Positions 30,228-60,752 of a stretch of DNA of 64,000 nucleotides are shown one piece after another. The position numbers and the translations under genes were made by a program. The DNA lies in the IMG/VR virus record IMGVR_UViG_3300025897_000009. One strand, 5' to 3'. This DNA is from a virus. Each line of letters opens with the position of its first letter. Position 1 is the first letter of the stretch. The notes beneath the pieces are model-generated. The model was not told the DNA's origin and did no database searches. It saw only the letters and a program-made list of their open reading frames with translations.

Positions 30228-32726
30228 TTAGGCAAAAAAACTGTCTAAACTAGCAGTTGGTTCTGTATTCCAGTCTATCGTATATAAAATTGCCTGTAGA
30301 GGTTCTAGAAAACTCTTTTTGAACTGTAAGTCATAATCTACATACTTGTGTAGATCAAACTCTTTTGGTAAGAAACCAATGAAAGCAATTACATTTTCAT
30401 TGATAGTGTTAGGAAGTTTTAGATAACAGAACTTGATCTTCTCACCATTCTTGATCAAACTGTATCTCATCTCTAATCCTTTTTTGTTTAGATAATGATT
30501 GTATAACAAAGAACCTCTTACATGAATCGGTGTACTCTTTGTGTAGATGTTAGCATTATCTTTATACTGTAGTAATCCTTTAACACTACGAGGGAATGCT
30601 ACTTCTTCAGGTGGTAGTTGAGTAAACATTATCCTGCTCTCCTCTACAAAGTTATGTATTGCTGTTTCGTCACCTTGCATGACCACCTTTAATCCTTCTT
30701 CTAACCTTTTGCGTACCCAAAGAGGAGTAGATGATTTTGCAGTTTCAATACCCATCATCTTCAACTTAGGTTGAGCAAGTCGAACTCCTTCGTCATCAAG
30801 TACATTTAGAATGTATCTTTTCTTAGCAGTCCATATACCTTTGTCTGCTATTACTTCTCTTGCCATTTGCATCTTTTGATCATAAGCATTTACATAGTCA
30901 GCAAGTTCTTGATAAGACTGATCAATAAAAGGTTCAATCTTTTCCTTAGCAATCTGATCTAAAAATTGTAATGGGTTCTTAGGATTCACTTTCTGTATCA
31001 ATTCATCAAACCTTACATACACTGAATCAGTATCCATTGCGATAACATAATCGGCATCAGTCTTGAGTAAATTGTTCAACCATTCGTTAATCTTCTTTTC
31101 AATCCATTGTATAGATAACTGCCCTGCTGTAGTAATGCCTTCTGCGATTCTGAGATTAAAGAAAGCAAAGTATTGGTTAGCAAGTGCACCATATGCTGAG
31201 TTAAGAGAAATCTTACGCACCATTTGGTTATTATGACAAATGGTAATTAATGATTGTAGTTCTTGTTTCTTTTTAGGATCAGTTTCAGTTTGAAGTTTCT
31301 TTGATGCTTCAATCATTCTACCTTTCCACAACTTCCTTTCATCATAGAACTGTTCCATTAACTCTGGTAAGAATCCTTGTTTCTTCTTACTAAACACTGC
31401 ACCATTAGGCACAACTGTCACATCTTTGCGTTTGATATATGTAGAATCATATTGCCCATTAAGTAGTTTCTTAACAGTGACATCTTCATGATCTTTTGTT
31501 AAGGTTTCTGGTGACATATTGTACTGCATAATCAAATGAGGATACAGTGAGTTTAAGTCAAAGGAAAGTACCCAATCGTGCCCACCAACTTGTGGTTCTT
31601 TTACATATGCACCTATAATTGGACCCTTCTTATCGTTGCCTGTTTTTAAAGCAGGTGGTGGAGTTTGTATGTTCCTATCTCTCAAGAAGTTGTAAATAAT
31701 AGTTTCCCAGTATCTTACTTGACCAAAGGTATCACCATAATTACACTTCGCAGTATAAGTCATAGCAAAGATTAAATCAATCAATCCTAGTTTCTTATCT
31801 AATCTTTCTACCAAGTCAACATCTTTGATGTTGTACTCTAAGAACTTAATGTAGTCTTGTTTGTATAGTAAGTGTAGAGATGACTGTTCATAGTCCAATT
31901 TACCCTCACCAAGTTCTACTTGGGCAATGTTATCTAAACGATAAGACTCTTGGTTCTTGTAAGTAAATTTGCGATAGATCTGTAAATAATCTAAAATAGT
32001 AATACCATGAAGTTTCCAAGATTGCTGTAGATTTGTACCACCCATAAAGTTCCATTCTCTGGTGTCTGACATACCCCATGGTGATAGTTTCTTATGTTCT
32101 CCATCACCAAACAGTTTGTCAATTCTATTACAAAGATAAGTGATGTCAAAGGTTTCTACATTCCAACCTGTGATACAATCTGGAGATAGTTCTCTCCAAA
32201 CTTTGATGAATTTTAAAAGTAATTCCTTCTCAGATTGACAAGGATGATAGATTATGTTTTGTTGATGATCCCATTCACCAAACCCAAACACATGGGCAGG
32301 TTGATCAAATTGTTTAAGGGTGATGGCATTGACTCTTTCATTTGCCAATGTGGGTTCGGGGAATCCTTCTTCACACTCACACTCAATGTCAAGAGTACAA
32401 ACTCGAATGAGTTTGGGGTCGTACTCTATTTCACCTTGAAAGTTCTCTGCGATATAGGTATATGCCCAACGATCAAAACCATGAACCTCAAAAGAATCAA
32501 TACCAGAATACTTCTCACGAAATCTTCTTGCTCCACTCATCCCATTTAGTTTAACAGGTTCGAGGTTTCTTCCGTCTAAGGTTTTATATGGCGAGTCGGG
32601 TTTATTAGAGAGAACATACAGAGTTGGTCTGTATGGCAAGGTTGCCTTTGCTTGCTTGCCATCTTTATAACCTCTTACAAGTATCTTGTCTCTAGTTGGG
32701 TGTACATGCGTATAAAAATCCATCAA
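30228..32726 (-). CDS. 43: Family B DNA polymerase (T4 gp43-like)
   Basis: DIE ExoI, SFDLNSLYPH, KISLNSAYG, DTDS. Confidence 0.98.
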   Translation of the reverse strand: MMDFYTHVHPTRDKILVRGYKDGKQAKATLPYRPTLYVLSNKPDSPYKTLDGRNLEPVKLNGMSGARRFREKYSGIDSFEVHGFDRWAYTYIAENFQGEIEYDPKLIRVCTLDIECECEEGFPEPTLANERVNAITLKQFDQPAHVFGFGEWDHQQNIIYHPCQSEKELLLKFIKVWRELSPDCITGWNVETFDITYLCNRIDKLFGDGEHKKLSPWGMSDTREWNFMGGTNLQQSWKLHGITILDYLQIYRKFTYKNQESYRLDNIAQVELGEGKLDYEQSSLHLLYKQDYIKFLEYNIKDVDLVERLDKKLGLIDLIFAMTYTAKCNYGDTFGQVRYWETIIYNFLRDRNIQTPPPALKTGNDKKGPIIGAYVKEPQVGGHDWVLSFDLNSLYPHLIMQYNMSPETLTKDHEDVTVKKLLNGQYDSTYIKRKDVTVVPNGAVFSKKKQGFLPELMEQFYDERKLWKGRMIEASKKLQTETDPKKKQELQSLITICHNNQMVRKISLNSAYGALANQYFAFFNLRIAEGITTAGQLSIQWIEKKINEWLNNLLKTDADYVIAMDTDSVYVRFDELIQKVNPKNPLQFLDQIAKEKIEPFIDQSYQELADYVNAYDQKMQMAREVIADKGIWTAKKRYILNVLDDEGVRLAQPKLKMMGIETAKSSTPLWVRKRLEEGLKVVMQGDETAIHNFVEESRIMFTQLPPEEVAFPRSVKGLLQYKDNANIYTKSTPIHVRGSLLYNHYLNKKGLEMRYSLIKNGEKIKFCYLKLPNTINENVIAFIGFLPKEFDLHKYVDYDLQFKKSFLEPLQAILYTIDWNTEPTASLDSFFA

Positions 32727-37871: not shown

Positions 37872-37948
37872 TGGCGATCCAGAAGGGACTCGAACCCTCA
37901 ACTTCTGCCGTGACAGGGCAGTGCTCTAACCAATTGAACTACTGGACC
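37872..37948 (-). tRNA. tRNA-Asp (GTC)
   Basis: Cloverleaf, CTGTCAC anticodon loop, GTTCGAGT T-loop, encoded CCA. Confidence 0.95.
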
Positions 37949-37952
37949 AAAG

Positions 37953-38028
37953 TGGTGGAGTGAGAGGGACTCGAACCCTCGACCTCTTCCGTGCAAGGGA
38001 AGCATTCTCCCAACTGAACTACCACCCC
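37953..38028 (-). tRNA. tRNA-Ala (TGC)
   Basis: GGGG 5' end with G3:U70, CTTGCAC anticodon loop, encoded CCA. Confidence 0.95.
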
Positions 38029-38032
38029 ACAT

Positions 38033-38108
<76 letters not shown>

Positions 38109-38259: not shown

Positions 38260-38712
38260 TTATTCAGAAAGTAAACTTTTTTTAGATGTTTTGCTTACTT
38301 TTCCACCAATATCGAAGATTTTTGGTTTCTTTTCTTCTGGAATAATGCGTTCTAGATCAATGAGTAAGATACCATTGGCCAAGTCAACATTAACTACTTC
38401 CACATCTTCAGCAAGGGCAAAAGATCTTTTAAAGAAACGAGAAGAGATTCCTTTGTGTAGGAATGACTCTTCGTCATCTTTATCTTTGTTTCCTTCAATG
38501 AACAGAGTGTGTTCTTTGAGTTCTACTTTAAGATCATCCTTACCAAAACCAGCGACTGCTATTTCAATAGTGAAATGCTCATCATCTGTTTTGCGGATGT
38601 TGTAGGGTGGATATGATGTAGAGGAATTTGCTTGAGACGCAATCTCTAATCTGTTGAATAAGGAATCTAGACCGATTCCATACATAAGGTTTGATGTATT
38701 AAATGTTACCAT
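38260..38712 (-). CDS. Small heat shock protein (Hsp20/IbpA-like)
   Basis: YPPYNI, IEIAVAGF, LHKGIS.R.F, NGIL, PEEKKP; start reset to MVTFN with AGGAG SD. Confidence 0.95.
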   Translation of the reverse strand: MVTFNTSNLMYGIGLDSLFNRLEIASQANSSTSYPPYNIRKTDDEHFTIEIAVAGFGKDDLKVELKEHTLFIEGNKDKDDEESFLHKGISSRFFKRSFALAEDVEVVNVDLANGILLIDLERIIPEEKKPKIFDIGGKVSKTSKKSLLSE

Positions 38713-38958
38713 CGTTTTTCTCCTTTTTAGCGAGTTGTAATTTGGCACCCATAATGGCATGCCTCCAAGTTGAGAATCTACTGATCCTCAAATATTATTT
38801 AGTCAATTTGTCACGTGAAACTTCTAATTGTTTCAACTTTATTTTCCAAATTTCCTTAAATTCTGGATCTTTTGCTTTTAGGATAGCATTCTGTAATGCT
38901 TCCTTTCTGTTAAGATAGTTGTACTCTCGTACAGCAGCAACCATGACTGTATTTGTAA

Positions 38959-41326: not shown

Positions 41327-41809
41327 TCACTCAAATAATTTATACTTAAACTCTAGTGACACTTCATGCCTTTCTGTATTGAAAAGGTATTCATTGTGCA
41401 CGACTACACTCCATTGCATCGTATTAATGAATCTAAGGTACTTGATTCTAAACTCATCATCCATGTAATCTATAGAATTTTTTATATACCAACCTGCAAA
41501 AATCTTCGTTAAGAGTACTCTCTGTCGATCAGGATTAGTTTTAAATAGAGGATTGCCCTCTTTAAGATTACAAGTAAACTCTTCAATGCATTTCTTTAAT
41601 CTTTTAGTTTGATGATGATCTATTGCGGATGCAATAAGATATTTCTTATATAGTCTCTTACTTGTTCTGGACCATGAGGTCTGATCAACTCTATAGTTGT
41701 CTATATAATTTTTCTTCACAGGCAAAGGCAAAGAGATTAATATCTCCTCAACCTGTGCGTGTAAAAAGAGTGGCAATGCTAGAACTAAGGTAAACAAAGT
41801 TCTAGTCAT
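41327..41809 (-). CDS. Exported hypothetical protein
   Basis: Signal peptide ending LHA-Q; EGNPL motif. Confidence 0.6.
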   Translation of the reverse strand: MTRTLFTLVLALPLFLHAQVEEILISLPLPVKKNYIDNYRVDQTSWSRTSKRLYKKYLIASAIDHHQTKRLKKCIEEFTCNLKEGNPLFKTNPDRQRVLLTKIFAGWYIKNSIDYMDDEFRIKYLRFINTMQWSVVVHNEYLFNTERHEVSLEFKYKLFE

Positions 41810-41884
41810 CGCAATACTCTGGGTTGTTAGAACAATAGAATTTAACTGCGTTCAGCATAAACATCATTTCGTCTTGCGTTAAAT

Positions 41885-41963
41885 CTCCATCACCCTTGAC
41901 ATTCCTAGCATCCTTTTTAGGGGATGCAGGAGTTTGTCTTTGGGGTGGAGTTCTTACTTTCCC
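41885..41963 (-). other. Candidate programmed -1 ribosomal frameshift signal
   Basis: In-phase G GGA AAG at 41963-41957, 6-nt spacer, extended hairpin 41950-41885. Confidence 0.7.
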
Positions 41964-42238
41964 TCTTTGGATTCTGGTTTAGACTGTAGTTCGTCTGTCT
42001 GTTTGTCGACTTCCTCAACTACTGTTTCGACTACACCACCAACTGCTGTTGATGCTGTGGAAACGATGCTTGCTGCATCTTCTAATACTGCTTGTCCAAC
42101 ACCACCGACAGTGCCGACAGTCGCATCGATAACACCTGTAGAAAGTTCTTTACCACCTTCTATAACTGCACCAACTGATGCGCATGATTGAACAAATAGT
42201 CCAAGAATCAATATGCTTATTGTATACAATTTAAACAT
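41954..42238 (-). CDS. Lipoprotein with Gly/Val/Ala/Thr-rich amphipathic region; candidate -1 frameshift extension to 41802
   Basis: GGAG SD before MFKLYT, VQSC lipobox; ends GAG GGA AAG TAA. Confidence 0.75.
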   Translation of the reverse strand: MFKLYTISILILGLFVQSCASVGAVIEGGKELSTGVIDATVGTVGGVGQAVLEDAASIVSTASTAVGGVVETVVEEVDKQTDELQSKPESKEGK

Positions 42239-59927: not shown

Positions 59928-60752
59928 TTAAAAAAAACTGTCCAAAGCATTTGCTGTTTCAACTTTAGAAGATTCATATACTGCTTTCCATTTAACTCGA
60001 ACTTCAGTTCTAGTTGTGGCACCTTGTTCAGCAACCCAAGAAGGATTGTCCTTTTCATACTGTGTCACATAATTAGGAAAGTGTTTCATTAATTGTATTT
60101 GACTTTGTTCTTGTACTGTGTTATCGCGAGACACTGAGTTACCACCACTGGTGCCATGCTTGTGATCAAATACCCAATCATGAAGCATTAGATTCTTGTG
60201 TCCTTTTTCAAACATTGCTAATAGAACATAGAAGTCTTCAAGTATCTTTGCTTGTGGGTTCTCATCTTCTAAGACAGTAAAACTTACCCCAGCATCTTGT
60301 ATCATTTTAGAGTTGATACCATAACAGGAGTAAGATCTAATAATCTCAGATCTAGATTCTTTATGTAATGTGTTAGATGATTTTGGCGATGGTCCAACCC
60401 AGAAGTAATTGTCGAGTTCTTTTTCAATTTCGATAAACATTTGGGCATATTCTGCAGCAGTTTCGAGTTTAACATGTTTAATTTTGTCACCCTCATATAC
60501 TCGTTTCATAAAGATACACTGATCGTCGATGATCATCACCTTTTCACCTAGTTCCATACAAGACTGTCTGACTCCAGGAATGAATAACTCTGCATCCCAC
60601 TCATGAACATTCATTGTTGGGTTATGCTGTTTTAAAATAGAACCTCTACCACTATGAGTTGCTACAACAACTCTTTCTTGTATCTCTTTAGGCAAATTGT
60701 TATATGCCTTTTGATTCTCTTCTCTTTTATAAGTTGGAATTACAATAATCAT
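59928..60752 (-). CDS. GT-A fold glycosyltransferase (TET-associated GT-like)
   Basis: IVIPTYKR, IIDDQ, LED, GGNS..R, terminal W; adjacent to TET/JBP. Confidence 0.75.
   Translation of the reverse strand: MIIVIPTYKREENQKAYNNLPKEIQERVVVATHSGRGSILKQHNPTMNVHEWDAELFIPGVRQSCMELGEKVMIIDDQCIFMKRVYEGDKIKHVKLETAAEYAQMFIEIEKELDNYFWVGPSPKSSNTLHKESRSEIIRSYSCYGINSKMIQDAGVSFTVLEDENPQAKILEDFYVLLAMFEKGHKNLMLHDWVFDHKHGTSGGNSVSRDNTVQEQSQIQLMKHFPNYVTQYEKDNPSWVAEQGATTRTEVRVKWKAVYESSKVETANALDSFF

Follow-up and report, generated by a model that had tools for sequence, protein, structure and literature searches.

The 64,000-nucleotide (nt) stretch of DNA analysed here (IMG/VR virus record IMGVR_UViG_3300025897_000009; the whole stretch is referred to below as the window) belongs to a T4-like virus of the pelagimyophage type and encodes, on its minus strand, a short putative lipoprotein whose stop codon is followed by an open -1 frame. 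Comparison with related loci suggests that this frame is translated as a C-terminal tail of the lipoprotein by programmed -1 ribosomal frameshifting, a reading to which we assign a probability of roughly 85%. The elements of a canonical -1 cassette are found together: a slippery heptamer in phase with the 0 frame, a conserved coding -1 open reading frame (ORF) without a start of its own, and an RNA structure within the range of 5-9 nt downstream. An earlier note, made from the letters of the window alone, had pointed out a candidate frameshift at this site. The heptamer G GGA AAG (41963-41957) and the 6-nt spacer TAAGAA lie where it placed them, the extended hairpin at 41950-41885 gave z = -4.09 when refolded, and the -1 frame is open for 51 codons, its TAG overlapping the ATG (41809) of the next gene within GATGACTAG. 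The Cys-x6-Cys end that the note saw in the tail is present in the window, and the Cys pair is invariant across the tails of the family.

The predicted frameshift cassette of the window

The lipoprotein ORF closes with the codons GAG GGA AAG TAA, and for this reason the heptamer falls in the X XXY YYZ phase (Table 1). The two sites G_GGA_AAG and A_AAA_AAG, the latter used by relatives of the window, are highly shift-prone in Escherichia coli (PMC5009743). The predicted long form has 145 amino acids (aa), 94 of them encoded in the 0 frame and 51 in the -1 frame, the tail running V-R-T-P-P ... Y-C-S-N-N-P-E-Y-C-D-D. Upstream, the -1 frame is closed by a stop codon four codons 5' of the heptamer, and the third frame is full of stops. 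An AlphaFold model of the tail consists of a disordered linker of ~28 residues, a helix at residues 30-46 with predicted local distance difference test (pLDDT) values of 92-94, and a short turn at the C-terminus, in which the second Cys lies.

Taken by itself, the hairpin is the sole feature of the cassette that is statistically unusual within the window. A 101-nt fold has a minimum free energy of -31.5 kcal/mol, a stability reached by none of 200 dinucleotide shuffles (z = -4.09), and the 75 nt 3' of the heptamer give z = -6.4. An in-phase heptamer within the last four codons occurs in 4 of 115 mechanically called window ORFs of at least 80 aa, and a -1 frame open for at least 51 codons follows the stop in 36% of 115 window ORFs and at 7% of random positions, the higher figure arising mostly because the next gene lies there. 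The window alone lifts the cassette only partly above chance, and it is the comparison with relatives that takes it beyond. Two further ORFs of the window, at 30228-32726 (-) and 59928-60752 (-), carry an in-phase T TTT TTT within their last 3-4 codons; the -1 frame that follows is open for 149 codons in the first, where it is probably just the next gene, and for 25 codons in the second.

Table 1. Coordinates of the lipoprotein, its predicted frameshift elements and the adjoining gene in the window.
Feature	Position	Strand	Details
Lipoprotein ORF, 0 frame	41954..42238	minus	ATG 42238, TAA 41956-41954; 94-aa precursor
Slippery heptamer G GGA AAG	41957..41963	minus	In phase X XXY YYZ, 0-frame stop directly 3'
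Spacer TAAGAA, 6 nt	41951..41956	minus	Contains 0-frame stop TAA
Extended imperfect stem-loop, predicted frameshift stimulator	41885..41950	minus	Starts after the 6-nt spacer
-1-frame extension	41802..41957	minus	51 sense codons + TAG 41804-41802
Conserved tail domain	41805..41885	minus	Amphipathic helix, then Y-C-x3-P-x2-C loop (Cys-x6-Cys)
Next gene, 160-aa exported protein with signal peptide	41327..41809	minus	ATG 41809, 5 nt before tail stop, within GATGACTAG

Conservation and coding of the tail

Relatives were pooled from 80 IMG/VR loci and 80 of 362 confirmed loci on metagenome contigs, and identical junctions were collapsed to give 116 distinct homologous loci from marine viral and metagenome contigs. 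The lipoprotein family is abundant in marine viromes, with more than 360 matching metagenome loci, of which these 80 of 362 were examined. Exactly half of the distinct loci (58/116) encode the tail in the -1 frame directly after the lipoprotein stop, while the other 58 have no tail in any frame of the available DNA. A hidden Markov model (HMM) of the tail gives a single match at each tail-bearing locus, and this match lies in the -1 frame directly after the stop in 58 of 58. Across the tail alignment (A1) the residues Y, C, P and C are invariant, although the tails are only 18-50% identical to that of the window.

Substitution patterns were compared among 44 unique 63-nt segments anchored at the Tyr-Cys codons. 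Codon position 3 of the -1 frame takes 48% of the pairwise differences, and the synonymous share of differing codons is 0.32 in this frame as opposed to 0.13 and 0.06 in the other two registers, which contain stops in 44/44 and 43/44 segments. These patterns indicate that the tail is coding in the -1 frame only.

The putative slip site across relatives

A perfect in-phase heptamer, either GGGAAAG or AAAAAAG, is present at 57 of the 58 tail-bearing loci, and no in-phase heptamer is found in the corresponding zone of the 58 tail-less loci. Three layouts occur: G GGA AAG or A AAA AAG with the stop directly after it, and A AAA AAG separated from the stop by one codon. The 0-frame stop is thus 0-1 codon away from the heptamer in all but one of the 57 loci, the outlier (L118) having its stop ~20 codons beyond. 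The single locus with an imperfect heptamer, L024, reads G GAA AAG TAA TGG, which keeps the shift-prone A AAG and creates a TAATG stop-start overlap.

In a tree built from the lipoprotein sequence minus its variable C-terminal end, the state of the tail changes three times and the heptamer changes alongside on each occasion. Loci L001-L004, nested within the tail-bearing L010/L012 clade with 99% support in the Shimodaira-Hasegawa-like approximate likelihood ratio test, have lost both: CCA AAA AAG GAC TAA has become CCT AAA CAG GAC TGA, and the -1 frame no longer codes for a tail. The type of heptamer also switches several times, with GGGAAAG found in three separate places of the tree among AAAAAAG clades, and therefore the site has undergone repeated rewriting without losing its slipperiness or its phase.

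Many relatives carry six to seven consecutive A at the site, and an extra base could be introduced into some transcripts if RNA polymerase, in place of the ribosome, slipped on this run. Runs of A are known to be prone to slippage, and transcriptional realignment is cited for An with n > 7 (PMC3711429). However, runs of 6-7 A are shorter than the A8 or longer cited there, homopolymers of ~8-9 or more A or T are absent from the site both in the window and in the relatives, and polymerase slippage cannot act on the GGGAAAG of the window and of three separate clades, with its runs of just three G and three A. All 57 of 57 heptamers keep the X XXY YYZ phase, which matters to the ribosome alone, and a hairpin spaced 5-6 nt downstream is the mark of a ribosomal stimulator. 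Slippage by the polymerase is accordingly regarded as very improbable.

The downstream hairpin

Folding of 44 distinct tail-bearing loci was compared with that of 43 tail-less loci, each tail-less sequence being folded from the matching position. A helix starts 5-6 nt past the heptamer at 30 of the 44 tail-bearing loci, with a median z of -2.7 and 31 loci below -2, as against a median z of -0.7 in the tail-less controls, of which 1/43 has a helix start at 5-6 nt and 6/43 at 5-8 nt. The stems are non-homologous between clades: that of the window pairs CTCCACCC.../...GGGTGATGGAG, and others pair GCCTGTTCTCC/GGAGAACAAGGC, GCCATTC/GAATGGC, CCCCTG/CAGGGG or CTTCATC/GATGAAG.

The best-sampled clade, which uses AAAAAAG, has a helix of 11 bp in which 92.7% of cells are paired, compared with 83% when shuffled and 43-57% when slid. 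Three of its pairs show changes on both sides (A-U, G-C, U-A, G-U), and the covariation score was reached by none of 500 shuffles. The nearest distinct relative of the window (L172), with a lipoprotein 70% identical, retains G GGA AAG TAA with its 6-nt spacer, and likewise the basal stem and the GATGACTAG overlap; the linker residues encoded under the 5' arm differ, being S-S-S-P in this relative and T-P-P in the window. The hairpin coincides with the linker part of the tail, which is variable and predicted to be disordered, and the conserved domain starts immediately 3' of the hairpin.

A hairpin that is very stable by itself, next to a kind of open -1 frame that is not rare after genes of the window, could also belong to a structured non-coding spacer that acts in processing, stability or attenuation, with the open frame being incidental. 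However, the codon-position and synonymous signature is confined to the -1 frame, the other frames being closed, and the residues Y, C, P and C do not vary although the underlying DNA is highly divergent. The conserved part lies 3' of the hairpin and not within it, and in the window no intrinsic terminator or T-run is predicted from the lipoprotein stop up to the next gene. A non-coding spacer is therefore held to be highly implausible.

Fused forms and proteins sharing the tail motif

No in-frame fusion of lipoprotein and tail was found among 153 lipoprotein homologues, the few longer proteins being N-terminal over-extensions, and a word-indexed search of longer proteins with the tail profile gave nothing. 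An exhaustive HMMER search of 1.84 billion cluster representatives with the tail returned 10 matches, comprising seven short fragments of the same -1 ORFs, one fused protein (P0126) and two others (P0129 and P0130).

The fused protein bears on a further alternative, namely that the two-frame layout results from a frameshift mutation or sequencing error in an ORF that is normally continuous, since P0126 does read through in frame. This protein was rejected as a natural fusion, however, as it comes from a Pilon-polished long-read contig in which neighbouring genes, FecR and the cyclase among them, are fragmented, and its tail contains a second frame error close to the end. The junction of the window is letter-identical in 10 independent metagenome assemblies, which excludes a sequencing or assembly error there, and 58 distinct loci keep the two-frame layout while no natural in-frame form was found in the searches above. 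An error as the source of the layout thus has a negligible probability. A contig of this description among the relatives is L081, a 252-kb Pilon-polished long-read contig of a related phage in which the FecR, cyclase and lipoprotein genes are broken by homopolymer indels, and its artefactual in-frame fusion serves as a warning for database searches.

P0129 and P0130 have signal-peptide-like N-termini and 3-4 tandem copies of the tail motif [YF]-C-x2-N-P-x2-C-E, or [YFW]-C-x2-N-P-x2-C-E in a broader form, and no Pfam family reaches threshold for either. The tandem motif looks like an undescribed Cys-loop repeat, and its presence in exported-looking proteins fits an extracytoplasmic role for the tail, with export by way of the signal peptide of the lipoprotein. 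Two identities were considered and rejected. A sub-threshold Pfam match to CP12 (E 0.16) falls on P0129 and not on the tail, and the Cys spacing of CP12 differs from that of the tail. A match to HdeB in a PDB search with the tail profile covers 12 residues at E 0.41 and is insignificant.

Possible independent initiation of the tail

The tail could instead be a separate small gene, started at the internal ATG ATG (M-M-F-M) or reached by reinitiation, that yields a free peptide of 21-50 aa. Two ATGs do occur in the window, 9-10 codons ahead of the conserved Tyr; L024 combines its TAATG overlap with an ATG as codon four of the -1 frame, and short ORFs of this kind have been predicted by gene callers. 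However, 43 of 52 distinct tails lack any ATG, GTG or TTG ahead of the conserved helix, and an ATG with a Shine-Dalgarno (SD)-like motif is found in only two. The ATGs of the window have no SD and lie inside the conserved segment, at a position where relatives carry Ile, Leu, Lys or Val, and initiation there would drop conserved upstream residues (D-x-x-x ahead of the helix in A1). At many loci a -1-frame stop stands immediately 5' of the heptamer, so that ribosomes can gain access to the frame no earlier than the slip site.

A free peptide would also be without a signal peptide, yet the tail has an invariant Cys pair in a motif otherwise found only in the signal-peptide-like P0129 and P0130, and a separate gene would leave unexplained both the strictly in-phase heptamer and its joint loss with the tail. 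For the family as a whole, an independently started tail is improbable.

The checks on homologues that the earlier note had proposed came out in favour of its reading with respect to the heptamer, in phase at 57/58 tail-bearing loci, and the -1 frame, which is open at all 58 and alone has a coding substitution pattern; covariation of the hairpin was found in one clade, with unrelated hairpins recurring at 5-6 nt. Initiation at the internal M-M-F-M codons, which the note had itself named as a refuting explanation, does not hold for the family.

Some observations nevertheless count against frameshifting. Judged from the window sequence alone, its two ATGs may give an independent peptide of 21 aa, and at L024 reinitiation through the TAATG overlap could serve instead of a shift. 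The clade of the L044 type is without a significant hairpin, with z near 0. The tree offers only 2-3 independent pairs, with which a sign test cannot reach significance; the association of tail and heptamer is consistent, however co-evolution is not statistically proven. Finally, a host tRNA-Lys that reads AAG well would lower slippage.

The lipoprotein and a model for its two forms

An SD sequence, GGAG, is located at 42247-42244, 5' of the lipoprotein ATG. The N-terminus of the product consists of a hydrophobic signal peptide followed by the lipobox V-Q-S-C with Cys19, in agreement with the pattern [LVI]-x-[SGA]-C, and C19 is invariant in 26/26 aligned homologues (alignment A3). By its signal peptide and lipobox the protein qualifies as a bacterial-type lipoprotein, a substrate of Lgt/LspA, with lipidation being predicted. 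Other invariant positions of the family in A3 are A20, G28-G29-K30 and D-x-Q-T-D-E-L-Q. AlphaFold2 returned one long helix at low confidence (pLDDT 55) for the lipoprotein, and neither Pfam nor PHROG profiles matched the lipoprotein, the tail or the product of the next gene.

The ESM Atlas clusters of the lipoprotein family are 100% viral and of unassigned function, with a weak match to DUF6726 (score 0.87). No bacterial homologues were found across one genome per GTDB species, and GenBank phage records gave no match with three different family members as query (low-complexity filter on). The family appears to be viral only.

Under the frameshifting model, most ribosomes would stop at the TAA and produce the 94-aa lipoprotein precursor, the mature short form of which is predicted as a long helix with lipidated Cys19 as its anchor. 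A share of the ribosomes, with tRNA-Gly on GGA and tRNA-Lys on AAG, would slip back by one base at G GGA AAG, promoted by the hairpin 6 nt downstream and possibly also by the adjacent stop codon. These ribosomes would read the 51 extra -1 codons to make the 145-aa long form, in which a flexible linker would lead to a small end domain of a helix plus Cys-x6-Cys. The end domain would reach the periplasm only through its fusion to the lipoprotein signal peptide, and its two Cys could form a disulfide there. Recoding would set the ratio of the short to the long form, and in this phage translation of the downstream exported protein may be coupled to the frameshifted ribosomes. What the sequences show directly is the signals, their conservation and the way they vary together with the tail; slippage itself and how efficient it is, as well as the location, disulfide and function proposed for the products, are inferred.

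With regard to function, it may be speculated that the product is a stalk-and-knob envelope protein with a fixed short:long ratio, or a receptor-masking lipoprotein. A more specific proposal, which is offered tentatively and considered doubtful, is that of an envelope lipoprotein of T4-like marine phages forming an oligomerising helical stalk, in which a sub-stoichiometric, disulfide-stapled end domain, its share set by the slip frequency, would dock a periplasmic partner, of which the exported protein translated along with it and the FecR/CHASE2-cyclase module are examples. In that case recoding would tune envelope signalling or exclusion and not virion assembly, and would represent a new functional class of phage recoding.

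Gene neighbourhood

The lipoprotein gene belongs to a same-strand block encoding csgF, csgG, a curlin-like repeat protein, a FecR-domain protein, a second curlin-like protein, the lipoprotein, the exported protein and a CHASE2 class III cyclase, and Pfam confirms the CsgF, CsgG, FecR, CHASE2 and Guanylate_cyc assignments. Two papers describe the curli cluster found in pelagimyophages and in the OM43 phage Melnitz (PMC7029224, PMC9004378), and the words frameshift, lipoprotein and cyclase are absent from both papers. No clear SD was seen for the gene of the 160-aa exported protein in the window, and no relatives of this gene were found in viral contigs. Relatives in the curli context have at this position a gene for a protein of 145-176 aa with a signal-peptide-like N-terminus, which often starts 2-5 nt past the tail stop.

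The curli-cyclase setting given in the earlier note is right for the window, however it is not obligatory, as one tail-bearing clade lies outside the curli and cyclase genes, between DNA polymerase and an IscU-like gene. In this replication-context clade (L044, L048-L053 and L066-L078) the neighbours are DNA polymerase, IscU-like, nuclease, UvsX and helicase genes, and a G+C-rich hairpin with a T-run overlaps the last tail codons and the tail stop, not the 0-frame stop. The structure resembles an intrinsic terminator. With such a terminator-like hairpin, or the start of the next gene, at the tail end, the tail ORF takes the position of a translated cistron. Since the family occurs without curli or cyclase genes, the lipoprotein and its tail form a unit of their own.

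Some tail-less members lie upstream of csgF (L013-L016, L034, L054) and not in the interval from the second curlin-like gene to the cyclase, and others have a small membrane protein gene after them. A large tail-less clade (L098, L101, L106-L109, L116, L121-L134 etc.) shows a TAATG overlap into a conserved ORF of ~30-45 aa with one hydrophobic span, I-M-E-V-V-I-P-L-A-I...K-R-F-x-P; in this TAATG-linked arrangement the lipoprotein is paired in another manner with a second small envelope protein. Elsewhere in the window, three tRNA genes (Asp-GTC, Ala-TGC and Thr-TGT) at 37872-38108 (-) are followed by an Hsp20-like gene at 38260-38760, and no tRNA-Lys or tRNA-Gly genes are encoded in the window.

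Comparison with known recoding systems

Most known examples of programmed -1 frameshifting in tailed phages concern tail-assembly chaperones, along with a few capsid genes. The closest parallel to the present cassette is the G/GT pair of phage lambda, in which a short ORF carries the identical heptamer G GGA AAG near its end, the shift appends a C-terminal domain from the -1 frame, and a short and a long form are made at a fixed ratio from one messenger RNA (PMC5009743), as is predicted here. The gene differs, however, being that of an unrelated signal-peptide lipoprotein in a T4-like genome and not lying between tail-tube and tape-measure genes, and the site differs in its strong downstream hairpin and in the stop codon directly after the heptamer. 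Membership in the gpG/gpGT chaperones was rejected, given the lack of any Pfam or PHROG match and the neighbouring genes, which are curlin-like, FecR, exported-protein and CHASE2-cyclase or replication genes.

The frameshift signal of E. coli dnaX is described in PMC3711429. Sister clades of the window resemble dnaX (tau/gamma) and IS911/IS3-type elements in their use of A AAA AAG with a stem-loop ~6 nt downstream. The length of the dnaX spacer is comparable to this distance. In dnaX the shift truncates the product, whereas it would extend the lipoprotein here, and the product is an envelope lipoprotein rather than a replicase subunit or a transposase. No SD-like stimulator is evident upstream at the distance seen in dnaX, although no systematic test for one was made.

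In gene 10A/10B of phage T7, a -1 shift near the gene end gives a minor, C-terminally extended isoform, 10B, of the capsid protein. The present family would share with it the C-terminal extension by a -1 shift and differs in slippery site and gene family. Small signal-peptide lipoproteins that are encoded by phages and act in the host envelope include T5 Llp, which needs a disulfide, and Cor. No frameshift is known in either, and with no sequence similarity to the present family detected, the likeness would be one of functional analogy only.

No published recoding was found for this family, for a phage lipoprotein or for a T4-like phage, and the terms "lipoprotein" and "T4-like" are absent from the review PMC5009743. 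The conserved tail domain is missing from all annotations because gene callers annotate only the short form. The family offers a compact natural cassette with two interchangeable heptamers, a fixed 6-nt spacer and diverse hairpins, as well as a handle on the unexplained curli/FecR/cyclase module of pelagimyophage-type phages. Set beside lambda, dnaX and T7, the mechanism is canonical, and the gene family is new to -1 frameshifting.

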